Below are positions 4,800 to 63,748 of a stretch of DNA of 63,748 bases, piece by piece. A program made the position numbers and the translations under genes. This stretch comes from Minisyncoccota bacterium. GTDB taxonomy: Bacteria > Patescibacteriota > Minisyncoccia > Phycocordibacterales > Phycocordibacteraceae. The DNA lies in contig JBAYJI010000001.1 of NCBI GenBank assembly GCA_041665205.1, positions 1 to 63,748 of the forward strand. The letters run 5' to 3'. The notes under the pieces were generated by a model that ran no database searches, had not been told where the DNA came from, and saw only the letters and a list, made by a program, of their open reading frames with translations. The stretch's first letter is position 1. Each line of letters opens with the position of its first letter.

Positions 4800-4808
4800 A
4801 ATACCCGT

Positions 4809-16867: not shown

Positions 16868-16872
16868 TTGAT

Positions 16873-17589
16873 ATGTCCCGACCGCTCATACAGTATGCAG
16901 GACGAGATCTCGAAGCGATGTTCTCTGCGCCCAATTACTGCGCATGGATACTCTCACAATTCGAGCCCTATCTAGGGCAGACGGTCGCAGAGGTGGGAGC
17001 AGGGTCGGGGAACTTCTCTTCAGAATTGGTGAAGAAAGTCAGCGGAAGGCTGCTTCTCGTAGAACCTTCCGTACAGATGTTCCCGCTTCTGGAGCAGCGT
17101 TTTGCGGGGAATCCGCGTGTCACGTGCGAGCAACATTATTTTGCAGAGGTAGCGCTGCACTATTGCGGTACACTTGATTCCATCGTCTATGTGAATGTCT
17201 TGGAGCACGTGGAGGATGATCGGCAGGAGCTCGCCGAAGCGTATAACGCCTTGAAACCGGGAGGTCATCTGTGCGTGTTCGTGCCGGCACTTCCACTCCT
17301 CTTCAGTGAGTTCGACGCGAGTGTCGGGCACTACCGACGCTATTCGAGACAGCAACTCGCGGCGCGTATGCGCGAAGCGGGGTTCGAGATAGTGAAGCTG
17401 CGTTTCTTCGACTTCGCCGGCATTCTCCCATGGCTTTTGTTTATGAAGCTCTTACATTGGCGGCTTACGCCTGGGAGCGCGGGACTCTATGACCGCATCG
17501 TCGTGCCGCTCATGCGGAAGGCGGAATCTCTCATCTCCCCGCCCGTGGGGAAGAACCTTATGGTTGTCGGGCGAAAACCTGTAGTATAG
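16873..17589 (+). CDS. Class I SAM-dependent methyltransferase
   Basis: Motif I VAEVGAGSGNFS, LDSIVYVNVLEHV, LKPGGHLCVFVP. Start ATG 16873 chosen just after the upstream stop (16867). Confidence 0.8.
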   Translation: MSRPLIQYAGRDLEAMFSAPNYCAWILSQFEPYLGQTVAEVGAGSGNFSSELVKKVSGRLLLVEPSVQMFPLLEQRFAGNPRVTCEQHYFAEVALHYCGTLDSIVYVNVLEHVEDDRQELAEAYNALKPGGHLCVFVPALPLLFSEFDASVGHYRRYSRQQLAARMREAGFEIVKLRFFDFAGILPWLLFMKLLHWRLTPGSAGLYDRIVVPLMRKAESLISPPVGKNLMVVGRKPVV

Positions 17590-44631: not shown

Positions 44632-44675
44632 AACTTTTGTAAAAAATATTTCGAGAAATATTTTTTACAAAAGTT
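44632..44675. terminator. Perfect AT-rich palindrome (21-bp arms, 2-nt centre) just after murB; likely bidirectional terminator or protein-binding site
   Basis: AACTTTTGTAAAAAATATTTC-GA-GAAATATTTTTTACAAAAGTT. Its 3' end overlaps a perfect DnaA-box 9-mer TTATCCACA (44674-44682). Confidence 0.6.
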
Positions 44676-44806
44676 ATCCACACATTATATTTTTTTCTTA
44701 CACAAAAAGTTTTTATCGCGCGATAATGATGTGTAGAAACGTTTGCGCATGAAATTTTTTTCGTGCACAGGCGGGTCGACTTATCAGCGCATAATTTCCA
44801 ACCACC

Positions 44807-44887
44807 ATGGCAAAAAAGCGTAAGGCAGTAAAGAAGGTCGCGAAGAAGGCAACGAAGAAGCGCAAGGCAGCAAAGAAGCGCGCATAG
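44807..44887 (+). CDS. Unannotated 26-codon Lys/Ala-rich basic peptide (MAKKRKAVKKVAKKATKKRKAAKKRA)
   Basis: ATG 44807 to TAG 44885-44887. Below the ORF-track length cut-off. CATAAT (44790-44795) lies 11 nt upstream and a strong terminator follows 25 nt after the stop, so it looks like a self-contained transcription unit. Confidence 0.5.
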   Translation: MAKKRKAVKKVAKKATKKRKAAKKRA

Positions 44888-44912
44888 TTTCGTATTCGTC
44901 TTTAAGAAAGAT

Positions 44913-48146: not shown

Positions 48147-51100
48147 ATGCGCGTTCGGAACGTCGCGTTATTTTTTATCAGCTGCGCGTTTGCGTTCAGC
48201 GTGTCGCCGATTGTCGCTACTGCTGCCTCTAATCCGACCGTGCTTATTGCACGGTTCGCAATGCCCCAGGTCTCAAAATCCTGGTACGGCATGTATGAGA
48301 CGGCACTGAAGACTGGCGATACTCCTCAGTTGAAGACATGTATCGAGAGTCCTCAAGGTAAACCGACGGTAACGGTTGACCTCTCGCAATTAGGGGTTTC
48401 GTCGAGTACGTGGGTAGTCAGCGGCAATTCGGGTACTCTTCTGGTTGGCAATGTGTATCACTACTCAGTCTACTGCTACGACTACGGATTCACTATCGGC
48501 GCTGATGCGGCAGTTTCTGACGGATTAAAGACCGTATCTATATCGGCTGTTGACTCGTCTGGCACCACCGCTTCAGGTACCGCACAAGTAGCGGTCGATG
48601 ACGCTCTGCCGACGCTTTCGCTCACCGATATCTCGTTCTCCGCTGTGCCATTAAAAGGGGGCGACAGTGTGTATCTGAGCGGATTAGCAGACGGGACCGG
48701 GAGTCCTTTGTCGGCGTTTCAAATTAAGGGGACATTTTTGGATACGGAAAGGAATATCGTGCTCCAGTCCTTTTACAAGAGAGACGTGCTTACTGCGGCT
48801 ATCGCCACCTCGACCGACGGTTCCTTTAACCGCGTTGCATTTGCTCTCGGTGACAATGAGGCGAGAATCATCTCAGCCGCTCCTTCCTTAAGAATCGACA
48901 TTATTGCGTACGACGGATCCGGACACACCGCGACAACGAGTTTGGAGGTTCCGGTTCCGAAGCCACCTCCGCCCGACCCGTGCATTGCCGCCGGCACCTG
49001 TGTCTCAAATGTCCTCTTCTTGCCGGGTATCGAGGGGAGCCGGCTCTACGAGGGGACGGGCTGCGGCAAGGCTGCCGAAGAGAAACTCTGGGAGCCGTAC
49101 GAGTCACTCTGGGGTGTGTTGCGCAGCGCAGGTGACAAGAAGGCGCGAGACCTCGCCCTCGACTCGTCGGGTGCGAGTGTCTGCACCGATATTTATACAA
49201 AGGAGGGCGACGTGATCGACACAGTCCGCGGCAGCAATATCTACAAGTCATTTCTCGACGAGATGAACGGGCTCAAGGCGGACGGTACGATAAACGATTG
49301 GAAGCCAGTCGCCTACGACTGGCGGTTCTCGCTCGACGACCTGCTCAGTAAGGGTACTGAGCGCGCCGGCAAAATCTATTACGAAGAAGCGACGAGCACG
49401 CCGTACATCGAACAGACGCTTCGCGCGCTGGCAGCGGGCTCGAAGAGCGGCAAAGTGACGATCGTCGCGCACAGCAACGGCGGCCTTGTGACGAAGGCGC
49501 TCTTGAACAGGCTCGGTGGTGCAGCGTCGTCCTTGGTGGACAAGGTCGTGATGGTGGGCGCGCCGCAGAGCGGCGCGCCCGAGAGTCTCGGCGCAGCACT
49601 CATGGGCTACAACGCCGGTATCTACAAATACGGTTTCCCTATCCTCTCAAACGCTGCCGCGCGCTCACTCGCGCAGAACCTGCCGATGACGTACCACCTA
49701 CTCCCGTCAAGCGAGTACCTAGAGAGTATCGCGAGCGACGAAGAACACCCCGTCGCCCGCTTCGCGGGCGACGGCTACGCGCGCGAGATCGCGGCATACG
49801 GCTCTACCATCACGAACACGACTGAGCTTGGCGACTTCCTCCTTGCACGCGAGGGCGGTCGCAAGAAGCCGAAGGAGTATGACCTGGGCTCTGCAGAGGT
49901 TTTGAATCAGGGACTCATAGACTACGCGAACAACACACACTCGATCCTCGACTTGTGGACTCCGCCTGCGGGTATCGAGGTGAGCCAGATCGCCGGTTGG
50001 GGAGCCGACACGGTCGCGGGGATAGACTTCTACACTGAGCCGTCCCGAATCCGCTCCTTTTTCGGGCCGAAGCGGAGGTATAAGCCGATATTTATCGAGG
50101 ATGGCGACGGGACAGTCCCTGTCCCGAGCGCGCTCCTGGTCGCCTCGAGCACTAGTGTAAAGAGGTATTGGGTTGATTTGAATTCTTATCGTATTGCAAC
50201 ATCAATAAAACGTGACCATAAAGATTTATTTGAAATCCCCTCGCTTGAAGAATGTATCAAGAACATCATTAAGAATGTCACCGGCACCTTGCCCCCGTAC
50301 ATCTCGACGAGCCAGCCGGCGCCAATCGCAGATGACAAGAAGCTTGTCTTCTTCCTCCGCTCGTCGCGCGTCCTCTACGTGCGAGACTCTCCTGAGAGCG
50401 AGGAGCCTCCGGTGAAGGTCACGATGCAGGTCAAGGACCCTTCGGGCAAGATTACCGGTATCGCAGAGGACGACTCGGTTACCGAAGACATCCCCGACTC
50501 GACGTACGGCGAGTTCGGCGAGGTGCAATACCTGATCGTCCCCGCAAGTGCAACACCGGGCAGCCGCTACGAGCTCACGCTTCACGGGCAGGCGAGCAGC
50601 GGGGGAGTGAGCGGCGCACAAGAGAGCACCTTCTCGCTCGAGATCCAAGAGAGCTCGGGCGGCGTCGCGACCGCTCTCGCGACTCTCGCAGATATCCCCG
50701 TGGTCGCGAGCACTACCGCGAGCCTCACTATCGGAGCGAACATCGACACTGTCTCGCCGCTTGTGGTCGACGAGCGTGGCGATGGCACCGAGACTCTCAC
50801 CGTCACACCTGTCGTCGGTGAGACCGTGCTCTATGAGCCGCCGGTCGTCGAGACACCTCCTGCACCAGCTCAAGCAGCTCGCGCTGCCGGCGGCCCGGGC
50901 TACTCGCCGTACCTGCCGCTCGCTGTCTCGACCCCTGCTTCTCTATCACTTGTTGTTCTCGAAGCCTCTACGACAACGCTTCTCGCTACTGCGACCGCCA
51001 CTCCTGCGGCTGCCGTCCCGCGTATCGTCACGCCGCGACTTGTAGCAGCTCCCCGTGCCTCTAATCCTGCGAGTACTCCGCTCTCACCGAGCGCTATCGC

Positions 51101-51233
51101 AAACGCGTTCCCCGACCTCTCGCAGACCGCCTCGGTTTATGGCGCTTCTCAACAGCCGGTCTTAAAGAAGATAGGCGAAGCGGTCTATACTAGTCTCTAT
51201 AGGCTCTGGGCTGCCTTAAAGGGATTCTTCTAA
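48147..51233 (+). CDS. Large secreted LCAT/PGAP1-like alpha/beta-hydrolase (phospholipase/acyltransferase-type lipase) with N-terminal Ig-like and C-terminal Pro/Ala/Thr-rich regions
   Basis: Signal peptide VALFFISCAFAFSVSPIVATAAS. LCAT-family motif AYDWR (YDWR codons 49314-49325). Nucleophile elbow VAHSNGG (Ser codon 49473-49475). Confidence 0.7.
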   Translation: MRVRNVALFFISCAFAFSVSPIVATAASNPTVLIARFAMPQVSKSWYGMYETALKTGDTPQLKTCIESPQGKPTVTVDLSQLGVSSSTWVVSGNSGTLLVGNVYHYSVYCYDYGFTIGADAAVSDGLKTVSISAVDSSGTTASGTAQVAVDDALPTLSLTDISFSAVPLKGGDSVYLSGLADGTGSPLSAFQIKGTFLDTERNIVLQSFYKRDVLTAAIATSTDGSFNRVAFALGDNEARIISAAPSLRIDIIAYDGSGHTATTSLEVPVPKPPPPDPCIAAGTCVSNVLFLPGIEGSRLYEGTGCGKAAEEKLWEPYESLWGVLRSAGDKKARDLALDSSGASVCTDIYTKEGDVIDTVRGSNIYKSFLDEMNGLKADGTINDWKPVAYDWRFSLDDLLSKGTERAGKIYYEEATSTPYIEQTLRALAAGSKSGKVTIVAHSNGGLVTKALLNRLGGAASSLVDKVVMVGAPQSGAPESLGAALMGYNAGIYKYGFPILSNAAARSLAQNLPMTYHLLPSSEYLESIASDEEHPVARFAGDGYAREIAAYGSTITNTTELGDFLLAREGGRKKPKEYDLGSAEVLNQGLIDYANNTHSILDLWTPPAGIEVSQIAGWGADTVAGIDFYTEPSRIRSFFGPKRRYKPIFIEDGDGTVPVPSALLVASSTSVKRYWVDLNSYRIATSIKRDHKDLFEIPSLEECIKNIIKNVTGTLPPYISTSQPAPIADDKKLVFFLRSSRVLYVRDSPESEEPPVKVTMQVKDPSGKITGIAEDDSVTEDIPDSTYGEFGEVQYLIVPASATPGSRYELTLHGQASSGGVSGAQESTFSLEIQESSGGVATALATLADIPVVASTTASLTIGANIDTVSPLVVDERGDGTETLTVTPVVGETVLYEPPVVETPPAPAQAARAAGGPGYSPYLPLAVSTPASLSLVVLEASTTTLLATATATPAAAVPRIVTPRLVAAPRASNPASTPLSPSAIANAFPDLSQTASVYGASQQPVLKKIGEAVYTSLYRLWAALKGFF

Positions 51234-51237
51234 AAAA

Positions 51238-51648
51238 ATGAAAACCAAATTCATACAATGTATACCAGCCGTACTCGTTCTAGTAGCTATTGGATTTCGG
51301 TACTTTAGTCAGTGGTGTATTCTTACGGATTCATCATGCTATGGCACATGGGTGCATTGGATTTATCTAGAGATCACTAATCCGGTATTTTATTTCACTC
51401 TCTTTTGTTTACCAATCACCATCGTCCTTGCCTTCGTGCCGTGGGGAGTGTTCAAGTCTTGGCTCAAGCTCGCAGCGTGGGCGGTGCCGCTCCTCCTCTT
51501 CTGGGTCTCGACGCAGCCGGTGTACCCGGGCTTTCTCTCGACCGACCGGGACGACGCGGCACGGCTCGCCGGGGGAGTCTTCGCGGGTGTGAGTCTCGCT
51601 CTCCTTATCTGGCGATCAATCGCCGCCCGGCGAGCAGGGGAGAGATAG
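51238..51648 (+). CDS. Small integral membrane protein, unknown function
   Basis: Four hydrophobic segments. Starts 4 nt after the lipase stop. Confidence 0.55.
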   Translation: MKTKFIQCIPAVLVLVAIGFRYFSQWCILTDSSCYGTWVHWIYLEITNPVFYFTLFCLPITIVLAFVPWGVFKSWLKLAAWAVPLLLFWVSTQPVYPGFLSTDRDDAARLAGGVFAGVSLALLIWRSIAARRAGER

Positions 51649-52830: not shown

Positions 52831-54228
52831 ATGTATCGTCCTACTATTGGTTTGGAGGTTCACGCCGAGCTCGCTACAAGGACCAAGATGTTCTGCGACT
52901 CGAAGAACGACCCCGACGAGACACGGCCCAACGTGAACGTCTGTCCGGTCTGCCTCGCGCACCCGGGCACCTTGCCGGTGATCAATAAAGAAGCGGTGCG
53001 GCACGTGTTGCGCCTCGGCACTGCGATCGGCGGCACCTGCGCAGACTTCACCGAGTTCGACCGCAAGAGCTACTTCTATCCGGACATCCCGAAGGGGTAT
53101 CAGATTAGTCAGTACGAGCACCCGCTCGTCTCGGGCGGCACGCTCGCGGGTGTCGCTATCACACGCGTGCATCTTGAAGAGGACACTGCTCGCTCGACGC
53201 ACGCAGGTGGTCAGAGCTTGGTCGACTTCAATCGTGCGGGGATCCCGCTCATGGAGCTCGTCACCGAGCCGGTGGTACACGATGCCGAGACTGCAGGGCG
53301 CTTCGCGCGTGAGCTACAGCTCCTCTTGCGCACACTCGGAGCAGGAGAGGCTAATCTCGAGAAAGGGGAGATGCGCATCGAAGCGAATATTTCGGTATCG
53401 AAAAGCGATACCTTCGGCACAAAGGTGGAGGTGAAAAATATAAATTCGTTCCGTTCGGTTGAGCGCGCAATCGCCTTTGAGATAGATCGCCAGATCGCTC
53501 TCATCGAGAGCGGAGGGAAGGTGGTGCAAGAGACACGCGGTTGGGACGAGGGGAAGCAAGAGACCTTTCATCAGCGCTTCAAGGAGGGGAGTGCCGACTA
53601 CCGCTACTTCCCGGAGCCGGATCTCCCGAAGCTCTATATCAGAGAGATTGCCGAGCTCGCTCCCGAGACGCTCCGCGCCTCACTGCCCGAGCTCCCGTGG
53701 GAGCGACGCGAGCGATATCAAGAGCTCGGCCTTAAGACAGAGGATGTCGAATTCATCATCGCATCAAATGCACGCGGAACATTTTTTGATGCAGTTGTTC
53801 GAGAACTTAACGTGCTCGCCCCGTTAGAAATCGGATTTCTAACGGGGCTCGCGGCGAATTATTTTATATCTGATCTCGCCGGAGAATCTAGAAATGCGAC
53901 ACCGACTTCGTTTGCAAAACTTATCCGCATGGTTGTCGCACAGGATCTCTCTTCGCGCGGCGCGAAGGACACCCTCGCGATCCTCGTCTTTAAGGGAGGT
54001 GACCCAGAAGAGATTGCGCGCGAGCACGGGCTTATCCAGTCGCACGACTCGGGTGCACTCAAAGTAGCAGTGCAAAAAGTCCTCGCCGAAGAGGAGAAGG
54101 CCGTCGGTGAGTATCGCGCCGGCAAGGAGGCAGCACTCCAGTACCTGATAGGGAAGAGTATGAAGGCCACCAAGGGCGCGGGTAATCCGGCACTACTCAA
54201 GGAGCTTATCGTCGCAGAAATAGGGTAG
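52831..54228 (+). CDS. gatB: Asp/Glu-tRNA amidotransferase subunit B
   Basis: MYRPTIGLEVHAEL...KMFC...CPVCLAHPGTLPV, RKSYFYPDIPKGYQISQ, HLEEDTA, VEVKNINSF, C-terminal GatB/YqeY domain. Confidence 0.95.
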   Translation: MYRPTIGLEVHAELATRTKMFCDSKNDPDETRPNVNVCPVCLAHPGTLPVINKEAVRHVLRLGTAIGGTCADFTEFDRKSYFYPDIPKGYQISQYEHPLVSGGTLAGVAITRVHLEEDTARSTHAGGQSLVDFNRAGIPLMELVTEPVVHDAETAGRFARELQLLLRTLGAGEANLEKGEMRIEANISVSKSDTFGTKVEVKNINSFRSVERAIAFEIDRQIALIESGGKVVQETRGWDEGKQETFHQRFKEGSADYRYFPEPDLPKLYIREIAELAPETLRASLPELPWERRERYQELGLKTEDVEFIIASNARGTFFDAVVRELNVLAPLEIGFLTGLAANYFISDLAGESRNATPTSFAKLIRMVVAQDLSSRGAKDTLAILVFKGGDPEEIAREHGLIQSHDSGALKVAVQKVLAEEEKAVGEYRAGKEAALQYLIGKSMKATKGAGNPALLKELIVAEIG

Positions 54229-54276
54229 TTGTGCACAGCTCTTCCATACCAGCCGAGATATGGCTATACTGTGGGT

Positions 54277-55041
54277 ATGGATGAGATTCTCATAGGGGAG
54301 AAGAAGTACGTATCGTCGAAACAAGCAGCCAAGCTCACCGGCTACGCTAAGGATTATGTCGGCCAACTCTGCCGCGAGGGCAGGGTGCCGGCACGGCTCG
54401 TAGGCCGCAGTTGGTACGTACTCGAGTCGGCGATTCACGATCACCGATTTAACGAGCAGAGTGAAGAGAAGGAGAGTCAGCCCGAGAACGCAGCCCTCGC
54501 CTCGACGTGGGAGGCTCCGCACTACGAGGCTATTCCTGCAGACGTGCTCCCTGTACAGAATCCTGAAGAACTCCTCGAGAAAGAAGCAGAAGATGACGGA
54601 AAGATAATGAATTTTGCGACCCCGCAGAATCTCCAGGACTCTTGGAAGGCGTGGTTTGATCGGATCGAGAACCCAAAAGCGGCCGCCCCAAGCGCACCGA
54701 GCAAGGTAGAAGAGCGAGAAATAGAGAGCAGAGAGGTCAGTGTGCCCGTGCACGCGATCCACCACCCCGAGTACAAGCCGCTCCCTGAAGAGCTCTCACC
54801 ACGGCGTACGCGCCTCGCGGCGACGCAGCCGGTGCGTGAAGAGGAGTATGAGCAAGAAATGCCGCGTAGAGAAGAAAGGAGAACAGGGAGGAGACTCGGA
54901 GCAGCATTTCAACTAGTCGGTGCGCTTGTCGCACTTGTGATGGCCTCTCTTGCCGTAGTCGGGAGTGGATACTTTGACGAATATATCATATCGACTAATC
55001 AAGCTGGGATGTTCGCCGGTGTAGGACTCTATAATAGGTAG
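54277..55041 (+). CDS. Membrane-anchored protein with N-terminal excisionase/MerR-type HTH, acidic linker and C-terminal TM helix
   Basis: YVSSKQAAKLTGYAKDYVGQLCREGRVPARLVGRSWYVLESAI (HTH_17-like). Glu-rich middle. LGAAFQLVGALVALVMASLAVVGSGYF near the C-terminus. TATACT 54265-54270 lies 6 nt before the ATG. Confidence 0.7.
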   Translation: MDEILIGEKKYVSSKQAAKLTGYAKDYVGQLCREGRVPARLVGRSWYVLESAIHDHRFNEQSEEKESQPENAALASTWEAPHYEAIPADVLPVQNPEELLEKEAEDDGKIMNFATPQNLQDSWKAWFDRIENPKAAAPSAPSKVEEREIESREVSVPVHAIHHPEYKPLPEELSPRRTRLAATQPVREEEYEQEMPRREERRTGRRLGAAFQLVGALVALVMASLAVVGSGYFDEYIISTNQAGMFAGVGLYNR

Positions 55042-55112
55042 CGTATCTATTATGTATCTCGTCTCGGATATACGAGATATATATAGAAGCGCACTGATGT
55101 CTGCATCGCTTC

Positions 55113-55142
55113 AAAAAGAACTCCGCATAGGGGGTTCTTTTT
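55113..55142 (+). terminator. Intrinsic terminator
   Basis: AAAAAGAACTCC / loop / GGGGTTCTTTTT: stem 55118-55124 with 55131-55137, then T-run 55138-55142. Confidence 0.75.
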
Positions 55143-55713
55143 GTTGGTGTGGGATGATTTTAGATCAAAATGGCTCTGCCTTAGACAAAGTGGCGTACAA
55201 GAAAGACTTATACAGAAGAATAATGAAGTCATGTGCGCACAATGTCCTGAATGCAACGTTTTGCGAACTTGTGTGAGAAAAATGCTGAGTGAATGATTTT
55301 ATTTGTTACTGAGAAAAGCGATCGGTGATGCATACGAGCTGACCTCTCTTCGGATATCCGACATATCTAGCATATACATTATATATAGTGAGATTGGCAT
55401 GTGCCTCAAACGACATAAACTTTTATGCATGGTATCTGAGGATCCGCCAGAGAGCGATTTAGAGCTCTAAAAGTGATTTTCTACAGGTTCATTTCATCGA
55501 AATAGCTCCACAGAGCTCTCTAGAGACGGTCGAGAGCGCTCTTGGGCGTGTGCAGAGGCGCTGCCGGGAGGGCTTCTGTAGCAAATAAAAAATCTTTTGA
55601 TAACGCTGAGAGCATTTTTATTTTGCTCAGGAATCTTATCCACACAATGCATTAATTTTTTTCACTAAACGCCAGGATAGTACGTTATTATTTAGTTAAT
55701 TCGGTTATCCGAC

Positions 55714-58700
55714 ATGACTCCTTCTCTCAACGAAAACTTAATCACCACGAAGGATGCCGGAGAGCTCTCTGGGTACAATCCTGACTATCTCGCACGTCTC
55801 GCACGTTCAGGAAAAATCTCCGGGAAGAGAATCGGTCACAGCTGGCTGATCGAGCGAGAGTCGCTCGATCAGTTTCTCGGTCAGCAGGGCGATCGCAAGA
55901 TTGATTACGCGCGCGCGCTTGCGCGCGCGCGAACAGAAGAGTATCAAGCGAACCGTGCTCCCTTGCGCCGCGTCGTGCGCACGTTGGCAAGGCCGGTACA
56001 GAGCCCACAGATCTCGCCGCTCACCACGCTTGTGGAGAGCTCCTTCCGTTCGCACGCGGTGGCGCTCGCGGTCGCCCTGCTTGTTGTGGGCACTGGGGCA
56101 GTCGGTGCGCGTGCCGCGGCGATCTCGCAGCTTGCAGGGGCGACCGCTTCGCTCATGCGCGAAGTCGCGTACGGGTTTGATGCGGCGTTCGGTGGCACTA
56201 CCTCTGGCATCAGGGCGAAGTTCGCTGAGGTGAATGACGCGATGCGTGCAGAGCGAGCGCGCGTTGCAGAAAATAATCTCGCCACATCTGCTCGCCTCGC
56301 CTCGCCAGAGATTCTCGCGTTTGATCTCGAGGCAACGCGCATGGTACTTACCAGCGAGCCTCGCGCTCATGTCGCATCTCGATTTGAAAGTCGGACATTG
56401 TCGGCATCGGCGAACACATCGATCGTCACGAGCGATGATCTTAAAACATTTGCACGCGACACGTACGCGCTCGCCACACATCCGTCGCGCATCGTGAGTA
56501 CCGTCGGCACGAGCGCCTACGGCGCGATCGGTGCGGCGCTTGCGGGCTATCGCACGCTCCTCGAACAGTCGGGGGTGCGGGCGCTCGCGCTCGGCGTCGC
56601 GACGCGCGACGCGCTCTCTCGTGCACCAGCTGCCAGCGCACGGCTCTCAGCGCAGACAGTACTCGCACTCGGCCAAGGCGTGATCGACGCGACGCATGCC
56701 CTGATCGCCGCTGACGTCAGCCTCGCCTACAGCACTGCCGCCGCGGCACCGGCGAGCGCTCGCGCGACGGTCGCACTAATCGGCTCTACTGGGGACGTGC
56801 TTGCAGGCGCGACCGCGCGCGTACCCGCCCTCGCTGCCGCAGCCTTCTTGCACACAACCGAGATCCCTGCCCGCGTCGCACCGGCAATCGCAGAGACGGT
56901 CTTCGAGGCAGAATACGCGGCCGCGACGCGTTTCGTCCCGCTTGCGCACGCACTCTCTCGCCAGTATCTCGCGCTTGTCCTCGGCACCGGTCGCCTCACC
57001 TACACAGCCACCGACCACACGCTCGCTCTCGCCGCTTCTGCAGGAGCGAGGCTCCCGCAAACGTTCTCGCAACCATGGAAGTCAGACTTCCATACTGTCG
57101 GCATTGCAATAGAAGACGCGTATCTCGGCGCACTCGGCAAGACAGCTGCTGCCATCGAATATGGAATATCGAATATCGAAAATAGAATCGATCACGTGCC
57201 GCAGGTGGCGGCAGCGCTCGCAGCGGTCGGACCCGCGCTCTCTGCGGGCGAGAGAGTGGCGCTCTCTACCTACGAGACTCTCCACGGCTTCTTCATCTCG
57301 ACGACAAGCGCACTTGCAGCGTTCTTCTCTACGACGCCTCCGCTCGTGCTCCCGACCGGCGTACCGAAAGCGCGTGTGATTACGGTCGCAACTTCAGCAA
57401 AACCTACCCCCTACAACCTACCCCCCACAACCTCGAATTCGTATCCCACCTACACCACCATAAACGGCGTTTCGCTTGACTACGTGAGTCAGTCGCTCGA
57501 CACGATGCGTAACAATATCCTCGCGACGGTCGCCGGCATGATCCAGCCGGTCGCGTACCAGACAGCGGGTAACTCGACGACGATCCAGTATGTGAGTATG
57601 ATGCAGGATCTCTCGGGTATCACGATTCGGGACGGCAGCTTCCGCGGGGGGACGTTCGACGGCGGTACCGTGTCGAACGGCATCTCGGTCTCGGCGACCG
57701 CCGGCACCTTCGGCAGTCTCGTCGCGACGAACGCGAACTTCACGAGTCTCACCGCGGGCGCGACGAGCCTCGCGACGACGACCATCACCGGCTCTCTCGC
57801 TGTCGGCACTAGCTCGCCGTGGGGGAATGGCCTCCTGACGGTCGGCACCTCGACGCCGCTCCTTCACATCAGCAGCAACACCGGTAACATCGGTATCGGG
57901 ACGTCAGTACCAGTAGCTCCTCTGCAAGTAAATGGCGGAGTATTTACTCCACTAGGTGGCGTTATCGGCACGACGGTATTTTCTCAATATTCCGGAATTG
58001 GAACATCTGGAATTATTACCCAAGGTGATGGACAGACTACAGGAGGAGGGATATTCGTTGCTACGGGAGATAATCAATGGTCCTCGAACCTTGAGTTTAT
58101 AAAATCTAGGACCAGTGATGGGCTGACAAACAAGGCCGTTCAATACGGCGACCAAATCGGTTTTATCGGTTTTAACGGTGATGACGGAACAACAGTGGCT
58201 CCAGCTAATGCATGGATGCAAGGCATTGTGGACGGAAGTGTTTCAACCGGAGTAGTCCCAATAGCAATTACGTTTAGTACTCAAAGTAACGGCGTGTTTC
58301 CTCCCACTGAAAGATTAAGGATTGCAAGTGATGGCAACGTCGGTATCGGCACCACATCGCCATTCGCACAGCTCTCGATCTCTAACTCCGCGACTACTGC
58401 CGCGAACACCCCACTCTTCACCATCGCCTCCACCACGAGCGGTCTCTCTACCACGACTCTCATGACCGTGCTCGCAAATGGGAATGTGGGCATCGGGACG
58501 ACGACGCCAGCATTTCCATTGGATATATTCAGCAGTACCGTAGCAGCTACAATAGACTTAACAGGGAGCGGACAAGGGGCAAACTTCCGCGCGACCCGTT
58601 ACTCTGATGACACCGTTGCCGCATTCCAGTCTCAACGTAAGGCAAGGGGTACTGCCTTAAATCCAGCCATCGTGCAGTCGGGAGATGTCGCCGGTAATCT

Positions 58701-61700
58701 TGCTTTCAACGGATATGACGGTTCTGCGTTTCGAGTACTCGCTACTGTTCAGGGAGTTGTCGATGGAACACCTGGTGCATCGGATATGCCCGGCCGCCTC
58801 GTGTTCAATACAACTGCCGATGGAGCATTTCTCGCATCAGAACGTATGCGTATCACAAGTGCCGGCTATGTCGGCATCGGGACGACGAGTCCGAGCCAAT
58901 TATTGAGCGTGCACGGCAACGGTCTCTTTTCGGGCGACATCTTCGCCGCCAACATCACCGCCACCGGCACACTCTCAGTGAGTACTATCACCGCCCCCGC
59001 TGCGCTCTCCATCTCGAGCACTGGCGCGGGCGACCTCACCCTCGATGCTGGTTCCGGCTCTATCAATATCGCTTCAGGCGACGACATTCTCGCCGTCGGC
59101 GCGAATTCAAATATCGGCTCGATTGGTGTTAAGTTCAACACCATTTATGCAGACACCATTTCAGCGACCACGCTCGTCGGCGTGGTGGTCGGCGGTGTGA
59201 CCAACTCCGCCGATTGGGTTATCAATAATGATAACGCTTCCGACGACACCGAGCCGATGACGCTCGCCTTCGAACGCGGCACGGTGACACCAAATGCGCT
59301 ACTCACCTGGAACTCCGCCGATTCTGCGAAGCGCTTCGAATTCAACCAGCCACTCTTCATTCAGGACGTCTCCGCCTCCGCCGCCTACACTCTCGACGTC
59401 TCCGGTCTCGGCCACTTCACCGGCCTCGTCGATGCTTCGTATTTTGTGGCGACGACGACCACCGCAACGAGTACATTCGCAGGTGGGCTCACTGTCGGTA
59501 CCAGTCAATTGGTGGTTCAGCACAGCACCGGCAACGTCGGTATCGGTACGACGACGCCATGGGCGCAGCTCTCCATCAACCCGAACGGCATCACGGGTCC
59601 GGCATTTGCGATCGGTTCCTCCACCGTCACGAACTTCGTTGTGACGAACGGCGGTAAGGTCGGGATTGGGACGAGCCCCTCCACCAACGATTTGTTGACA
59701 ATTTCCGGAAACGGCAATAATGCCTATGTTCAACTCATAAGCACAGACGGAACGGATACTGGCATAGGTATTACTTCAGGCAGCGGTCAAACATCGTATG
59801 TTTATGTCGGAGGCAACAACCAGTCGGATCTTCGGTTTTGGACAAATGGGGGAGACCGCATGATGATAAATGCCGACGGCAATGTTGGCATCGGGACGAC
59901 ATCACCGTACGCGCAACTCTCCATCTCTAATTCTGCAACCACCGCCGCGAACACCCCACTCTTCACCATCGCCTCCACCACGAGTGGTCTCTCTACCACG
60001 ACTCTCATGACCGTGCTCGCAAATGGGAATGTGGGAATCGGGACGACGAGTCCGACAAATACACTCGGAGTGAACGGATTCATCGACACTGGCCCCACCT
60101 TCGGCTACAAGCAGAATAACAACCTAATCCTGTATGCATCCAGCACCATCTCATCAGTATTTGGCGGGCAAGGTGCGGGTGCGAGAGTGATTGCGAACGC
60201 AACTTCCAGCTCCGTAACTTCTGGTATCTATGCCACCGCCTTTGGGCATCTAGCACTCGGTAATGCAACATCATCAGCGTATGGAAGCACCGCCGTCGGC
60301 TACAGGGCGCTTCAAAGTAGTGCGACAGGGGGTGGAACCGCCGGAGAAAACACAGCAGTTGGTGCTTGGGCACTCTACCAAAATACGAGCGGGTACGACA
60401 ATACCGCTAACGGTCTGCTAGCTCTTCAGAGTAACACCACGGGTAGCTACAACAACGCATTTGGTACTTGGGCACTCTCATCAAATACCACGGGTCTCTC
60501 CTCTGTTGCTAACGGCACGAGTGCTCTCTTCTACAGTAACGGAGACTTTAATTCAGGTTTTGGAAATGACACCGGTTACAATCCGGACAACGATATTGCT
60601 CAATACCGCATAGTTGACGACACGAACATGACATTTCTCGGTAATGGAGCTACAAAAGACAACGCATCAACTCTCACAAATGGTACTGCCCTTGGCAATG
60701 GCGCCCATGTTCTAGCAAGTAATCAGGTCGTGTTAGGTAATGATAACGTTACAACTACGCTACTTAAAGGCAGCGTCGGCATCGGGACGACGAGTCCGTC
60801 CTCGCTCCTCTCACTTTCAAACTCCGCCTCCACTCCCATCGACACCCCGCTCTTCACGATTGCTTCGACGACAGGCGGCACCTCGACCTCGACACTCATG
60901 ACCGTGCTGGCAAATGGGAATGTGGGCATTGGGACGAATGCCCCGACCAACCTTCTGGGTCTGTATAGCAGTACCGCTGCGACAGCTGCAATAACGGGTG
61001 ACGGAGGGACATCATCTCTTAACATCTATCGTTACTCGAATGACACTTCAAGCAGCGCGTCTATAAAGCAATATGCAGCCCGGGGAAGTCTTGCGTCACC
61101 GAGCGTAGTTGTTGAGGGTGACTCGATCGGGAACAATCAATACTACGGCTATGACGGCGGAGGTTTCCGTGTCCTTGCTACAATATCCCCGCTCGCTGGC
61201 ATTGTTAATGGTGTAAACGATTTCTCCGGCATTCTTACGTTCAAAACGCGCCCTACTGGTGTCGGGGCGAGCAATCTCGAGCGAATGCGTATTGATTCCA
61301 ACGGGAACGTCGGGATCGGGACGACGAGTCCGTATTCGCTCTTGAGCGTGCAGGGCAATAGTTATGTGAGTGGCACAAGCTTCTTCGGCGGGGCAGTCAC
61401 CGCAACATCAACACTCACACTCACCGCACTCGGCACACCGGCAGGCAGCATGCTCGCGGTTGATGCAACCGGCAAGTTCATCGCGACCTCGACTGTCTCG
61501 GTCGCGAATCTCGCCCTCGCGAAAGGCAACTTCCTCGTCGGCGATGATGCGGGCGTTGCGCGGGCAACCTCCTCTATCTTCATCTCTTCTGCGGGCTACG
61601 TCGGCATCGGGACGACGACGCCGACAGAGAAGTTGGATATCAATAACGGGGCGGTGGGTACAGTACAAGGGGCATTGAGAATAGAAGGGACGCTGAACGC

Positions 61701-63748
61701 GGCAGACACGGGACACTCTATTGATTTCTTTGCTGGTTCGGCAAACACTGGTGCAGCGGCAAATGCTTACGCGCGAATTGCAGGAGTTACTGATTCTGGT
61801 GGCGTGGGCGGGGTATTGGCACTCTACACAAACAGTGGACTTGGAGCAGTCGCGTCAGTTGAAAGAATGAGAATAGATAGACAAGGCAACGTCGGCATCG
61901 GGACGACCACTCCAGGTGCAAAACTCGCCATCAACCTCCCCGCCACCGGTCTCGGCATGTATCTCGCAGGATACGCCAGTGGGACAGGGGCACTCTTCAG
62001 CATCAGCACCTCCACCGCCTCCGCCACCACCACGGCATTTCAGATTGATAACAATGGGAAGGTGTCAGTCGGTTCTGGCACCGCCACTCTTGATTTCAAT
62101 GTGCAAGGGCAGTCCTATTTCAGCGGCAACGTCGGCATCGGGACGACGAGTCCGGCATACAAACTGGATGTCGCCGGATTCATCAACACCGACCAGTTCA
62201 GCGGGTATAAGCAGGCGGGGAATACGATTTTGTATGCGTCATCAACATCATTCACCACTTTCGGCGGTATCAACGCAGGGACGGGAATAATAGGTGGTGC
62301 AAGTGTGGCAAACGTCTACTCGACTGCCTTTGGGTACAACGCCATGCAAAACGCGACAACCTCTCAAGTATCAAGTACGGCGTTTGGGTACAACGCATTG
62401 AAAGGCAGTGCAACGATAAGTAACACTGGCGGGAATAGCGCGTTTGGATACAATACATTGACTAGCATCACTTCAGGGAGTAACAACTCCGCGTTCGGCA
62501 GTAGTGCTCTCGGTGTAAACACATCAGGGGCCGACAACAATGCGTTCGGTAGAGTTGCACTCCAACTAAACACCACTGGCACTACTAATAATGCCTTCGG
62601 TGAATATACGCTTCAGTTAAATACGTCAGGTACTTCCAACTCGGCGTTCGGTCACGCGGCTTGTGCTGGCAACACGACGGGTGCTGGCAACAACTGTGTT
62701 GGTAATTATTCACTGCGATACAATAACGGCTCGAACAACGTGGCGAACGGCAGTCTTGCAGGGCTAGGATTAACCAACGCGATAAATGACTACAACTCTC
62801 TTAGCGACAGCAACATGACCTTTATCGGTGCTTTATCCTCTCGTGACGGAAGCGTAGTCGCTTCGACAACCTCACTCACAAACGGGACGGCAATTGGCTA
62901 CGGTTCGCAGGTCGGTGCCTCAAATTCCCTCGTGCTTGGTGGGTTGTACGCAAATGCGGTCAAGGTCGGCGTGGGTACCTCGACTCCTTATGCAAAGCTA
63001 TCTATCCACGCGGTATCCGGCGAGACGAACACGACACTCTTTGCGATTGCCTCATCTACCGCGAGTGCGACGACGACACTCTTTTCTATCTTGAATACGG
63101 GTAACGTGGGCATCGGGACGACGAGTCCGGCAGTTGCGCTTGATGTCTCCAGCACTGATACCACAAACGGGCAACTTCGACTCGAGAATGGCGGTGCGTA
63201 TACGTCGTTTATTGTAGAGGCAGACGGCTCTTTGTTTATCAAACCGAATAACGCGGCGACCTTTTTTGGGGCATACAATTCCGTGAGCTCCGTTCGTATT
63301 CTGAACAACATTCAGGTAAATAGCAATGTGAGTTCATACTTCAACGGCACAGGTAATCTTGGGATTGGGACGACGAGTCCGTATGCAAAGTTATCAGTTT
63401 CAGCACTAAATCCGACTGCGCCGCTCTTCGCGGTTGATTACGGAACGGGTACAGCCACCTCGTCAGCACTGTATATTTCAAGTAGCGGTAACGTCGGCAT
63501 CGGGACGACGAGTCCCGGCTCGATCCTCTCCATCCAAGGCGTCGCCAACTTCACCACCGGTACTACCACCTTCTACGGCAATGGCATCAACATCCCTGCG
63601 AGTCAGTGTTACGCCGTCGGTGGGACGTGTCTCTCGAGTGGTGGGGGTGCGGCCGCGGGCATTGCTGGCGCTGTCCAATTTTCTGACGGAGCTACGTTTG
63701 CCAGTGACACACTTTTCTTCTGGAACAACACCACTAAGTCGCTCGGCA
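55714..63748 (+). CDS. Giant surface fibre protein, 5' part (>=2,678 codons, runs off the right edge): N-terminal HTH, single TM, Ala-rich region, then repetitive tail-fibre-like and YadA-head-like modules
   Basis: Frame 1 is open from ATG 55714 (in-frame TAG at 55693-55695 upstream) to the window end. Missing from the ORF track because it has no stop. HTH LITTKDAGELSGYNPDYLARLARSGKISGKRIGHSWLIERESL. TM AVALAVALLVVGTGAVGA (~56053-56109). 18 in-frame GNVGIGTTSP-type motifs. Confidence 0.85.
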   Translation, partial: MTPSLNENLITTKDAGELSGYNPDYLARLARSGKISGKRIGHSWLIERESLDQFLGQQGDRKIDYARALARARTEEYQANRAPLRRVVRTLARPVQSPQISPLTTLVESSFRSHAVALAVALLVVGTGAVGARAAAISQLAGATASLMREVAYGFDAAFGGTTSGIRAKFAEVNDAMRAERARVAENNLATSARLASPEILAFDLEATRMVLTSEPRAHVASRFESRTLSASANTSIVTSDDLKTFARDTYALATHPSRIVSTVGTSAYGAIGAALAGYRTLLEQSGVRALALGVATRDALSRAPAASARLSAQTVLALGQGVIDATHALIAADVSLAYSTAAAAPASARATVALIGSTGDVLAGATARVPALAAAAFLHTTEIPARVAPAIAETVFEAEYAAATRFVPLAHALSRQYLALVLGTGRLTYTATDHTLALAASAGARLPQTFSQPWKSDFHTVGIAIEDAYLGALGKTAAAIEYGISNIENRIDHVPQVAAALAAVGPALSAGERVALSTYETLHGFFISTTSALAAFFSTTPPLVLPTGVPKARVITVATSAKPTPYNLPPTTSNSYPTYTTINGVSLDYVSQSLDTMRNNILATVAGMIQPVAYQTAGNSTTIQYVSMMQDLSGITIRDGSFRGGTFDGGTVSNGISVSATAGTFGSLVATNANFTSLTAGATSLATTTITGSLAVGTSSPWGNGLLTVGTSTPLLHISSNTGNIGIGTSVPVAPLQVNGGVFTPLGGVIGTTVFSQYSGIGTSGIITQGDGQTTGGGIFVATGDNQWSSNLEFIKSRTSDGLTNKAVQYGDQIGFIGFNGDDGTTVAPANAWMQGIVDGSVSTGVVPIAITFSTQSNGVFPPTERLRIASDGNVGIGTTSPFAQLSISNSATTAANTPLFTIASTTSGLSTTTLMTVLANGNVGIGTTTPAFPLDIFSSTVAATIDLTGSGQGANFRATRYSDDTVAAFQSQRKARGTALNPAIVQSGDVAGNLAFNGYDGSAFRVLATVQGVVDGTPGASDMPGRLVFNTTADGAFLASERMRITSAGYVGIGTTSPSQLLSVHGNGLFSGDIFAANITATGTLSVSTITAPAALSISSTGAGDLTLDAGSGSINIASGDDILAVGANSNIGSIGVKFNTIYADTISATTLVGVVVGGVTNSADWVINNDNASDDTEPMTLAFERGTVTPNALLTWNSADSAKRFEFNQPLFIQDVSASAAYTLDVSGLGHFTGLVDASYFVATTTTATSTFAGGLTVGTSQLVVQHSTGNVGIGTTTPWAQLSINPNGITGPAFAIGSSTVTNFVVTNGGKVGIGTSPSTNDLLTISGNGNNAYVQLISTDGTDTGIGITSGSGQTSYVYVGGNNQSDLRFWTNGGDRMMINADGNVGIGTTSPYAQLSISNSATTAANTPLFTIASTTSGLSTTTLMTVLANGNVGIGTTSPTNTLGVNGFIDTGPTFGYKQNNNLILYASSTISSVFGGQGAGARVIANATSSSVTSGIYATAFGHLALGNATSSAYGSTAVGYRALQSSATGGGTAGENTAVGAWALYQNTSGYDNTANGLLALQSNTTGSYNNAFGTWALSSNTTGLSSVANGTSALFYSNGDFNSGFGNDTGYNPDNDIAQYRIVDDTNMTFLGNGATKDNASTLTNGTALGNGAHVLASNQVVLGNDNVTTTLLKGSVGIGTTSPSSLLSLSNSASTPIDTPLFTIASTTGGTSTSTLMTVLANGNVGIGTNAPTNLLGLYSSTAATAAITGDGGTSSLNIYRYSNDTSSSASIKQYAARGSLASPSVVVEGDSIGNNQYYGYDGGGFRVLATISPLAGIVNGVNDFSGILTFKTRPTGVGASNLERMRIDSNGNVGIGTTSPYSLLSVQGNSYVSGTSFFGGAVTATSTLTLTALGTPAGSMLAVDATGKFIATSTVSVANLALAKGNFLVGDDAGVARATSSIFISSAGYVGIGTTTPTEKLDINNGAVGTVQGALRIEGTLNAADTGHSIDFFAGSANTGAAANAYARIAGVTDSGGVGGVLALYTNSGLGAVASVERMRIDRQGNVGIGTTTPGAKLAINLPATGLGMYLAGYASGTGALFSISTSTASATTTAFQIDNNGKVSVGSGTATLDFNVQGQSYFSGNVGIGTTSPAYKLDVAGFINTDQFSGYKQAGNTILYASSTSFTTFGGINAGTGIIGGASVANVYSTAFGYNAMQNATTSQVSSTAFGYNALKGSATISNTGGNSAFGYNTLTSITSGSNNSAFGSSALGVNTSGADNNAFGRVALQLNTTGTTNNAFGEYTLQLNTSGTSNSAFGHAACAGNTTGAGNNCVGNYSLRYNNGSNNVANGSLAGLGLTNAINDYNSLSDSNMTFIGALSSRDGSVVASTTSLTNGTAIGYGSQVGASNSLVLGGLYANAVKVGVGTSTPYAKLSIHAVSGETNTTLFAIASSTASATTTLFSILNTGNVGIGTTSPAVALDVSSTDTTNGQLRLENGGAYTSFIVEADGSLFIKPNNAATFFGAYNSVSSVRILNNIQVNSNVSSYFNGTGNLGIGTTSPYAKLSVSALNPTAPLFAVDYGTGTATSSALYISSSGNVGIGTTSPGSILSIQGVANFTTGTTTFYGNGINIPASQCYAVGGTCLSSGGGAAAGIAGAVQFSDGATFASDTLFFWNNTTKSLG
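58399..58503 (+). repeat. 105-nt segment nearly identical (2 mismatches) to 59944-60048
   Basis: GCCGCGAACACCCCACTCTTCACCATCGCCTCCACCACGAG[C/T]GGTCTCTCTACCACGACTCTCATGACCGTGCTCGCAAATGGGAATGTGGG[C/A]ATCGGGACGACG. Confidence 0.9.
59944..60048 (+). repeat. Second copy of the 105-nt near-identical segment
   Basis: See 58399-58503. The flanks are only loosely similar. A third, more diverged copy lies at ~60840-60940. Confidence 0.9.

Follow-up and report, generated by a model that had tools for sequence, protein, structure and literature searches.

Two adjacent genes, here designated A and B, in a Minisyncoccota bacterium (ultra-small, Kaiserbacteria-type) raise the question of what a helix-turn-helix (HTH) domain does beneath the membrane when one of the two proteins that carry it extends outward as a giant fibre. 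The window, i.e., the whole stretch of DNA that was analysed, comprises 63,748 nt of the forward strand of contig JBAYJI010000001.1 (GCA_041665205.1). Within it the genes are ordered SecA-Obg-GatB-A, followed by a spacer and then by B, and this order recurs in approximately 70 of 80 Kaiserbacteria/Paceibacterota species genomes; the A-spacer-B arrangement persists even with B types that are only ~43% identical in the head. Both open reading frames proved to be as described in the first-pass annotation, and their N-termini, which it had aligned, are paralogous (29% identity over 91 aa); since the BLASTP E-value is 2e-10, the similarity is beyond chance. A GY..DY signature within the HTH is private to the A and B families, neither family varies at K13 or R31 (B numbering), and basic residues are retained in the wings (GKRIG in B, ARLVGR in A). 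The census of HTH-transmembrane (TM)-fibre architectures and gene neighbourhoods that had been proposed earlier returned this recurrent pair as well as at least 586 protein clusters with B's HTH-TM head, among them proteins of up to 7,214 aa. Judged by sequence, the pair is not peculiar to the window and looks like part of the core gene set of the clade, placed among housekeeping genes. The suggestion that the small protein is a partner or an antagonist of the large one stood in part: co-conservation of the pair makes a dedicated partner plausible.

Gene A lies downstream of gatB after a gap of 48 bp and was divided as follows.

54277..55041, + strand: gene A, a tail-anchored protein of 254 aa (ORF and translation)
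54307..54441, + strand: winged HTH of A, residues 11-55 (Pfam HTH_17, 27.4 bits against a cut-off of 27)
54451..54846, + strand: acidic, mostly disordered cytoplasmic linker of A, residues 59-190 (alignment, charge count, AF2)
54892..54978, + strand: TM helix of A, residues 206-234 (Kyte-Doolittle 2.38, AF2 pLDDT 87-93, positive-inside rule)
54979..55038, + strand: short conserved extracellular tail of A, GSGYFDxYIxSxxQxxxxAGVxLYN[KR], beginning inside the predicted helix (alignment)

Homologues of A number more than 1,500 full-length proteins of ~250 aa in Kaiserbacteria/Paceibacterota, and the gene is present in 176 species genomes. Residues 11-58 are almost invariant among 34 aligned orthologues, the overall identity of which is just 47-63%. 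The linker has a net charge of -15 over residues 59-190 and holds conserved short motifs (W-E-x-P-x-Y-E, LQDSWxAWFDR, VPIH and PPEELLP); the AF2 model of A is poor, with low confidence in the linker except for a helix at 117-131. RREERRTGRR precedes the TM helix, and in the tail G231, Y232, D234 and G248 are invariant.

The second gene begins at the earliest possible start codon, 55714, and encodes more than 2,677 aa before continuing beyond 63748.

55714..63748, + strand: gene B, a giant membrane-anchored fibre protein, 5' part only (ORF runs past the window end)
55738..55887, + strand: winged HTH of B, residues 9-58 (HTH_17 29.7 bits, AF2, Foldseek, phmmer)
55891..55989, + strand: basic juxtamembrane helix of B, residues 60-92, conserved as RKIDYARALARAREAEYRA (AF2)
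56041..56109, + strand: TM signal-anchor of B, hydrophobic core residues 110-132 (hydropathy, AF2)
56110..57513, + strand: conserved Ala-rich extracellular region of B, residues 133 to ~600 (conservation across the B family)
57514..63747, + strand: fibre of B, GNVGIGTTSP modules and NxAxG head-like repeats (PHROG tail-fibre families)

The HTH of B was modelled by AF2 with a pLDDT of 94-96 over residues 10-50 and the element order strand-helix-helix-strand-strand-helix; its best Foldseek matches were TraN, Xis, BldC and RacA, and phmmer aligned it to TraN with E = 0.008. The domain has a net charge of 0 and is duplicated in tandem in some B variants (P0150, P0177). Residues 59-95 carry a net charge of +6, and a disordered stretch at residues 94-101 separates the basic helix from the TM helix in the AF2 model.

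The description of B as a giant fibre was borne out by matches to tail-fibre families (phrog_9942, E = 6e-50; phrog_18345, E = 4e-31), and on sequence grounds the exterior of B is a tail-fibre-like protein. A Pfam scan returned no match in the Ala-rich region, residues 133 to ~600. Complete B orthologues span 2,175-2,791 aa; the fibre is dispensable for the module, because B-head orthologues of 401-502 aa that lack it (L001, L053) retain the same head and upstream element. The C-terminus of B itself lies beyond the window; in full-length homologues, a domain scan found Peptidase_S74 in two of three tested (P0144, 7e-21; P0150, 1e-26) and not in P0147, along with C-terminal Bact_surface_Ig-like domains. 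As Peptidase_S74 is an intramolecular-chaperone domain, the fibre probably assembles as a trimer. Phage tail fibres and tailspikes share with B the tail-fibre PHROG repeats and, in its full-length homologues, Peptidase_S74; however, B is chromosomal, has conserved core synteny and a cytoplasmic HTH, and is anchored by an N-terminal TM helix where phage fibres use a baseplate-binding domain, and in its homologues S74 is followed by ~400-500 more residues, Ig-like domains among them. A trimeric autotransporter adhesin was also considered and rejected: neither B nor its full-length homologues have YadA-type head or stalk Pfam domains, and such adhesins are anchored by a C-terminal beta-barrel instead of an N-terminal TM helix.

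The excisionase/MerR-like winged-HTH pattern that the first-pass annotation had read in both proteins was recovered as Pfam HTH_17 (PF12728) in each, and AF2 returned a winged helix for B. The gathering cut-off of 27 bits was passed narrowly, with 27.4 bits for A and 29.7 bits for B, and the fold was confirmed by AF2 and Foldseek; the TIGR01764 excisionase model stayed below its curated cut-off of 28.8 (A, 18.5 bits; B, 22.5 bits). Each protein has exactly one hydrophobic helix by Kyte-Doolittle hydropathy, as had been claimed, and that of B (residues 107-138, score 2.01) is the sole hydrophobic segment in 2,678 aa. The cytoplasmic N-terminus agrees with the positive-inside rule, as Lys and Arg are richer N-terminal of the helix in 72 of 74 orthologues of A and, for B, in 45, with 18 equal and 11 having fewer. 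The predicted layout also follows the earlier description, with ~205 of the 254 residues of A in the cytoplasm and only ~20-26 outside, and at least 2,540 residues of B external. Taken together, these data show that in both A and B a single TM helix has an excisionase/MerR-type winged HTH on its cytoplasmic side.

Three named families were set aside. A full MerR-family regulator has a MerR/MerR_1 domain at the N-terminus, then a coiled coil for dimerisation and, at the C-terminus, a domain that binds an effector; this identity was rejected: a Pfam scan at E <= 1 gave no MerR/MerR_1 match, the helix after the HTH runs into the TM segment in the AF2 model and not into an effector domain, and full MerR proteins align to the B HTH only with an rmsd of 8-12 A (Foldseek). 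Membership of the ToxR/CadC family was rejected as no Trans_reg_C was found in A or B in the same scan (E <= 1), the fold being of excisionase/MerR type, and RodZ identity as neither HTH_25 nor DUF4115 was found at E <= 1.

ToxR and CadC proteins use an OmpR-type Trans_reg_C domain and a folded periplasmic sensor. The earlier comparison of A and B to this type holds for the topology only: A and B have an HTH_17/excisionase-like domain, for which DNA binding is predicted, and are devoid of a sensor domain. Like A and B, the transmembrane transcription regulators (TTRs) ToxR, TcpP, CadC and VtrA/VtrB have one TM helix, the N-terminus inside and a DNA-binding domain in the cytoplasm; they frequently have a second membrane protein as a partner, and their action on neighbouring genes is exerted from the membrane. 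A and B are likewise paired. In contrast to TTRs, one of the two, B, carries a tail-fibre-like structural protein of 2,000-7,000 aa. TTRs are widespread, with HTH_17 a minor DNA-binding class (151 of 50,302) in a census that does not mention Patescibacteria (Demey et al. 2023, PMC10269533); the operational definition used there, one or more TM regions alongside a recognised DNA-binding Pfam domain, describes both A and B.

The best fold match of the B HTH is TraN, of the type IV secretion system of Enterococcus plasmid pIP501 (PDB 4P0Y, 4P0Z, 4PM3, 6G1T), which is also its sole PDB sequence match (28-32% identity over the HTH) and shares the motif LIT(T/A)K(D/E)A..L.G.N..Y. TraN binds double-stranded DNA, according to its PDB entry title, and is a tandem repeat of the winged HTH fold, as in the tandem-HTH variants of B; unlike B, it is small, soluble, cytoplasmic and plasmid-encoded, and has neither a TM helix nor an extracellular part. 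Excisionase/BldC-type proteins (Pukovnik Xis, Tn916 Xis, RdfS and Streptomyces BldC) have the same fold (rmsd 1.5-1.9 A over 48-49 residues, target-normalised TM-score 0.65-0.74) and share with A and B the HTH_17 and TIGR01764 neighbourhood; however, they are soluble proteins of 50-70 aa, and the candidate sites of A and B are palindromic.

Those sites lie in the A-B spacer, which the first-pass annotation had singled out as a target region and which does hold a strongly enriched palindrome and a near-invariant block. The spacer is 672 bp here (55042-55713). Across loci it is long (median 600 bp) and AT-rich, with a GC content of 36% against 49% in A and 55% in B.

55041..55092, + strand: hairpin right after the A stop, with conserved TCTCGTCTCGG at 55057-55067 (RNA fold -23.3 kcal/mol, z = -4.3)
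55064..55075, unstranded: palindrome copy O1, TCGGATATACGA (palindrome search)
55112..55150, + strand: intrinsic-terminator-like hairpin with U tract UUUUUGUU (RNA fold -22.8 kcal/mol, z = -6.1)
55345..55390, + strand: mid-spacer block, O2 TCGGATATCCGA at 55350-55361, then -10-like TATACATTATATA (nhmmer)
55636..55644, + strand: TTATCCACA, an exact DnaA-box consensus, at -78 relative to the B ATG (alignment of spacers)
55660..55713, + strand: near-invariant block up to the B ATG, TAGGnAATGCCGAAATA, then TATTATTTAG at 55686-55695, then TTCGGTTATCCGAC (alignment of 74 loci)
55701-55712, within the block before the B ATG: palindrome O3 (palindrome search)

The TCTCGTCTCGG motif was found 15 nt past the A stop codon in 46 of 74 spacers. 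The hairpin at 55112..55150 is absent from the list of a consensus terminator scanner; it is predicted to close the gatB-A transcript, separating the transcript of A from B. The mid-spacer block was detected by nhmmer in 19-24 spacers, 350-450 nt upstream of the B ATG. O2 is an exact palindrome, and the left half-site of O3 is degenerate; at <=1 mismatch, the 12-bp palindrome TCGGATATCCGA has three matches in the 63.7-kb window, all within the 672-bp spacer. Across 41 kb of spacers, 112 TCG-N6-CGA sites were counted against 4.5 +/- 2 in shuffles (~25-fold), and these sites fall in three positional classes. Sequences within one mismatch of TTATCCACA occur in 72 of 74 spacers, at about -69 or -79, i.e., in two classes 10 bp or one helical turn apart, and the motif also heads a second conserved promoter-like element upstream of secA. 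The promoter-like near-invariant stretch covers ~80 bp ending at the B ATG, with fixed offsets of -28 and -12; these offsets and the 10-bp shift of TTATCCACA are as expected for DNA-level, face-of-helix constraints, and neither RNA structure nor covariation was found in the block. It occurs once in the window and is missing exactly where the head of the downstream gene diverges. Because A is fully conserved in the 8 loci from which the element is absent, its invariant HTH is argued to have another or an additional target.

We tentatively favour, at somewhat below even probability, a reading of A and B as membrane-tethered DNA binders on the control region of B, a variant of the TTRs. Because A follows gatB after so short a gap, it would be made constitutively; its invariant HTH, the HTH of B, or both would bind the palindromes, and this binding would set transcription of B and tie its locus to the membrane. 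The giant protein would then be inserted and exported during synthesis (transertion), with the HTH leaving the ribosome first and remaining as the cytoplasmic foot of the finished fibre, where it may feed back on the same palindromes. A link between membrane-bound regulators and transertion has been drawn before (PMC9977878). Nearly all of the closest solved structures to the B HTH are DNA binders, and both HTHs probably bind DNA; on the one ground of gene adjacency, we infer that A or B, and not another factor, recognises the palindromes. Against these points, a structural fibre present in many copies would be an odd carrier for a sequence-specific regulator, and A has no sensor domain, the HTH_17 scores are just over threshold, and the B HTH is uncharged overall. 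Excisionase-type domains usually bind direct repeats, head-to-tail as monomers or filaments, and not 12-bp palindromes.

Possible, though less probable, is that the HTH now serves protein-protein contacts and does not bind DNA, as in RodZ and CbpM. It would dock the fibre foot either to A or to part of the cytoskeleton or of the secretion or division machinery, A would be a dedicated subunit for assembling or anchoring the fibre base, and the spacer motifs would be those of a normal promoter used by other factors. RodZ shares the HTH-TM topology, and its HTH binds protein, namely MreB; however, it has an Xre-type HTH_25 with a DUF4115 periplasmic domain. HTH_25/RodZ-type proteins make up 11% of the catalogued 'transmembrane regulators' (PMC10269533). 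Strict co-conservation of A and B, their private signature and an HTH that is not basic overall are consistent with such a module, and the opposite charges of the A linker and the B juxtamembrane helix would allow direct contact. The fold matches include CbpM, whose MerR-like fold contacts a protein, but at ranks 5 and 15 it is the exception among DNA-binding neighbours, and the basic wings with invariant K13 and R31, the tandem duplication that parallels DNA-binding TraN and a ~25-fold enriched palindrome exactly between A and B all argue for contact with DNA.

A nucleoid-envelope tether resembling RacA, in which low-specificity DNA binding fastens the chromosome under the fibres for segregation or organisation of a very small cell and regulates nothing, is improbable. 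RacA, a DNA-to-envelope tether of the same fold class as the B HTH, fixes the chromosome at the cell pole; lacking a TM helix, it depends on DivIVA to contact the membrane. One of the fold matches is a RacA-DNA complex, numerous fibres would each provide a DNA-binding foot at the membrane, and the core, housekeeping setting of the pair would suit the role. Such a tether leaves unexplained, however, the need for two paralogues and the confinement of specific palindromes and an invariant block to the spacer, and the remaining 1.2 Mb of examined loci showed no repeated sites resembling a centromere.

Also hardly probable is ToxR-like one-component signalling, in which contact or load on the fibre makes the TM helix change its oligomeric state or shift its position, which switches a DNA-bound HTH, with A as partner or antagonist at the same sites. 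The topology fits single-pass transmembrane regulators, candidate operators adjoin the genes, and an extra partner protein is common in the class, ToxS, TcpH and VtrC being examples. However, the Pfam scan returned neither Trans_reg_C nor a folded sensor, any signal would need to travel a structural fibre of over 2,500 residues and then one helix, hardly any of A is exposed for sensing, and the fibre-less orthologues L001 and L053 keep both head and element. Least probable is that intramembrane or juxtamembrane cleavage frees the HTH upon fibre damage or shedding as a soluble regulator that restores fibre synthesis: residues 94-101 of B offer a disordered stretch, and precedents for such circuits exist among membrane-tethered regulators generally (review PMC7593790), but none of the loci examined has a protease gene, of the site-2 type or otherwise, linked to the pair, and a conserved cleavage motif was not identified.

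Kaiserbacteria and Paceibacterota belong to the Candidate Phyla Radiation, whose members are tiny, uncultured and possess few recognisable regulators, and to our knowledge how they attach to other cells is largely unknown. The pair and the candidate DNA target between its genes hint at a direct link between surface and chromosome. It is doubtful, but conceivable, that the HTH foot of a presumably trimeric fibre, A and the palindromes form a self-contained surface-chromosome coupling device of ultra-small episymbiotic bacteria; if so, its task would be to signal directly to the fibre promoter that the fibre is engaged or lost, or else to hold the gene at the membrane and thereby allow export of a 2,000-7,000-aa protein during its synthesis. 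The core syntenic pair would then be the simplest known wire from cell surface to promoter or, alternatively, a built-in answer to giant-protein export. Two small HTH domains and a 12-bp palindrome constitute a triplet that can be tested in vitro without culturing the organism, and the N-terminal signature allows recognition of hundreds of giant surface proteins whose current annotation says no more than 'HTH domain-containing' or 'DUF5011 domain-containing'. Were the HTH a protein adaptor instead, the pair would represent a new case in which a surface organelle is anchored by a co-opted DNA-binding fold.

The first-pass annotation had described two adjacent genes, here A and B, as each encoding an N-terminal helix-turn-helix (HTH) followed by a single transmembrane (TM) helix, and this structural reading was borne out by profile scores, a hydropathy scan, charge bias and a structure model of B. 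The features concerned are as follows.

54277-55041, + strand: gene A, intact, 254 aa
55042-55713: spacer between A and B
55064, 55350 and 55701: palindrome copies within the spacer
55714 onward, + strand: gene B, intact, at least 2,677 aa, truncated by the end of the window

The ATG at 55714 is the earliest start codon downstream of an in-frame stop. The N-termini of A and B align over 91 residues with 29% identity (E = 2e-10), and both lie narrowly above the Pfam HTH_17 gathering score of 27 (A, 27.4 bits; B, 29.7 bits); TIGR01764 (excisionase), under its cut-off, and excisionase PHROGs gave weaker matches. The hydropathy scan returned one TM-grade segment per protein, at residues 206-234 in A and 107-138 in B, the latter being the sole one in 2,678 residues. 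Lys and Arg are more numerous on the N-terminal side of the helix in 72 of 74 A orthologues, while among B orthologues 45 are biased to that side, in 18 the two sides are even and in 11 the bias runs the other way; this bias argues for an N-terminus inside the cell in both proteins.

Because the AlphaFold2 (AF2) model of full-length A was too poor for a fold search (mean pLDDT 58), residues 1-140 of B were modelled instead, from a joint alignment of A and B heads. Residues 10-50 were predicted at pLDDT 94-96 as a strand, two helices, a two-stranded wing and a further helix, that is, a winged HTH; beyond it the model continues as a long basic helix (60-92), a short disordered stretch and the TM helix (105-139). 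The best Foldseek matches in the PDB were TraN of plasmid pIP501, the mycobacteriophage Pukovnik Xis and BldC-DNA complexes (probability of about 1, rmsd 1.5-2.8 A over 48-60 columns), followed by the looser-fitting Tn916 Xis, RdfS, RacA-DNA, GlnR and MerR-family N-domains. The query also includes two long helices, which explains the weak E-values (0.02 or more). By sequence, TraN was the only PDB match to the B head (E = 0.008), and the A profile gave no significant match to PDB sequences. Both halves of the internal tandem repeat of TraN align with B residues 8-33, and this repeat is the same arrangement as that of several B-type homologues (P0177, P0150, P0142, P0137, P0251 and P0260; P0150 is the B gene of locus L010), which carry two tandem HTH domains ahead of the TM helix. 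For TraN, BldC and RacA, function is taken from PDB entry titles and general background.

In the A family, full-length homologues, each about 250 aa long, number more than 1,500 and are assigned, where named, to Candidatus Kaiserbacteria, Paceibacterota or Minisyncoccia, and relatives occur in 176 species-representative genomes. Residues 11-58 are almost invariant while the whole proteins are only 47-63% identical; a few short motifs persist in the acidic linker, and the extracellular tail is conserved as well. Among protein clusters at 50% identity, 2,428 matched the B head (HTH, basic helix and TM helix), of which 586 did so at E <= 1e-10, and the longest protein bearing a B-type head has 7,214 aa. 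The B exterior matched phage tail-fibre PHROGs (E = 6e-50 and 4e-31). Peptidase_S74, an intramolecular chaperone of trimeric phage fibres, was present in two of three full-length B homologues tested, and bacterial Ig-like domains were terminal in all three; NCBI labels such proteins only as 'DUF5011 domain-containing' or 'helix-turn-helix domain-containing'. In a survey of 1.2 Mb of loci, which samples a single neighbourhood, the HTH-TM head was confined to A, B and occasional extra B-like paralogues, and almost all giant homologues examined at full length were fibre-like. The head as a generic secretion or anchoring signal on unrelated proteins, a reading that the first-pass annotation had named as fatal to its own, was not supported by this sample.

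The window is a segment of a bacterial chromosome, with genes for Wzy-TPR, MurB, SecA, Obg and GatB lying 5' of the pair. When an HMM of the shared HTH was run against all ORFs of 84 loci, A was followed by a same-strand HTH gene with a TM helix at about residues 105-140 in about 70 of 80 genome loci, and the order SecA-Obg-GatB-A-B was kept even where B heads are only 42-43% identical. The downstream gene is mostly giant (2,175-2,791 aa where complete, with many exceeding 3,000 aa at a contig end); short ones of 401-502 aa occur in three loci (L001, L053 and L081). In locus L004 secA is split into five ORFs (3009-5530), which marks that assembly as frameshift-prone, and its 609-aa 'B' and the following 684-aa and 227-aa ORFs may be pieces of one giant gene. 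In some genomes A is directly followed by an additional gene of about 240 aa (HTH and two TM helices), and a third HTH-TM gene, preceded by its own TTATCCACA...TAGGTAATTCG element, lies about 7.5 kb downstream. The loci with extra HTH-TM genes are listed here.

L019: 6061-6777
L032: 11002-11748, and 18304 onward
L034
L050

Two further observations concern neighbouring genes. Between secA and obg (48147-51648) the window has a 136-aa ORF and a gene for a protein of 1,028 aa that includes an LCAT-like alpha/beta-hydrolase region; obg directly follows secA in L001, L085 and L086, which indicates a lineage-specific insertion. In L085 the giant fibre gene is followed by one for an 876-aa protein (15895-18525) with Bact_surface_Ig-like and Hint/PT-HINT domains and weak matches to PG_binding_1 and Laminin_G_3.

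The A-B spacer (median length, 600 bp) is poorer in GC than the genes on either side, at 36% compared with 49% for A and 55% for B. Two strong hairpins lie 3' of the A stop codon, and the second, with a U tract, looks like the terminator of a gatB-A transcript. The conserved blocks contain a palindrome of consensus TCG-N6-CGA (ideal form TCGGATATCCGA), with 112 occurrences across 41 kb of spacers compared to 4.5 +/- 2.0 in shuffled spacers. It occupies three positions, directly 3' of the A stop, mid-spacer at about -380 and abutting the B ATG, and with up to one mismatch the three spacer copies are the only matches in the entire 63.7 kb. The final 80 nt or so ahead of the B ATG are nearly invariant, even between genomes in which the A proteins share only about 45% identity. 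The order is TTATCCACA, a variable gap and TAGGnAATGCCGAAATAnTAAGTTATTATTTAGTTAATTCGGnTATCCGAC-ATG; the position of TATTATTTAG is -28 and that of the last motif -12. For TTATCCACA there are two classes of position, about -69 and about -79, whose separation by one helical turn points to a constraint at the DNA level. The block is missing in eight loci, all with a divergent downstream gene and a conserved A, and thus probably belongs to the B-type gene; the upstream element tracks the B-type head and not A, a pattern confounded by phylogeny and paralogy. In L086, a distant relative, the block (5940-6003) ends in ...TTCGGATATCCGAC-CTG rather than ATG, with the start codon called 26 nt beyond it, so the block is not obligatorily fused to the start codon.

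Other readings of the spacer were rejected. An RNA element was discounted, as the window held no Rfam family at gathering score and no tRNA, and RNAalifold on -90 to +20 of B gave -0.5 kcal/mol, 3 pairs and zero covariation. A hidden small gene was dismissed since tblastn of five small ORFs returned only short matches on conserved DNA blocks. The spacer is AT-rich and contains a perfect DnaA-box consensus (TTATCCACA), but a replication origin is unlikely: the box is usually single per spacer and orientation-specific, and it stands at the head of another promoter-like element as well; within 54000-58000, cumulative GC skew reaches a maximum, not a minimum, at the start of the giant gene before dropping. 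That peak probably stems from the Thr/Ser/Ala/Gly-rich codons of the fibre and not from a replication terminus. TCTCGTCTCGG is not a genome-wide repeat, as 59 of its 60 other occurrences share a single conserved location some 1.8 kb upstream of A. Another non-coding element with strong conservation lies between murB and secA (44660-44880), and about 45 loci have it in the corresponding position (e.g., L005 726 and L010 1166), in the order AAAGTTATCCACAC, about 38 nt, CGCGATAAT, TAGAAACGTTTGCGCA, a hairpin and GACGGGTCGAC; a tiny, very basic ORF (MAKKRKAVKKVAKKATKKRKAAKKRA) follows at 44808-44888. With TTATCCACA present here too, that motif looks like an upstream element which several promoters of the lineage share and which is orientation-specific.

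We tentatively favour a model in which the HTHs of A and B would both bind DNA, with the spacer palindromes as their candidate sites; the module would control the giant gene and keep it at the membrane for co-translational export, and the HTH of B would remain as the foot of the fibre. We infer the passage from an HTH fold to binding at these sites, and on to regulation or tethering. A link between membrane-bound regulators and transertion has a precedent in PMC9977878. Among established categories, the nearest is that of transmembrane transcription regulators, of which a 2023 census counted 50,302, including 151 with HTH_17, with no mention of Patescibacteria (PMC10269533). The same census counts RodZ-type HTH_25 proteins, so an HTH with a TM helix does not prove regulation.

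The alternatives are not fully exclusive of one another. The HTH might serve as a protein adaptor, as the partner of CbpM, one of the fold neighbours, is a protein and not DNA; with DNA complexes of BldC and RacA also among those neighbours, we consider this rather unlikely. That the HTH simply tethers the nucleoid is improbable; the RacA-DNA complex among the neighbours fits it, but the restriction of the palindromes to the spacer within the window speaks against it. Contact signalling through the fibre, proposed in the first-pass annotation by analogy to ToxR/CadC with a fibre replacing the sensor, is at least as doubtful: the analogy extends to topology only, A and B being without an OmpR-type domain and without a sensor, and orthologues that lack a fibre retain both the head and the upstream block. 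Proteolytic release, which would free the HTH from the membrane, is very improbable. A and B thus form a transmembrane HTH pair, of which one member continues into a giant tail-fibre-like surface protein, accompanied by a conserved set of candidate operators; our literature search found no description of this HTH-TM-giant-fibre architecture. The HTH-TM pair with its candidate operators belongs to the core synteny of a CPR lineage.
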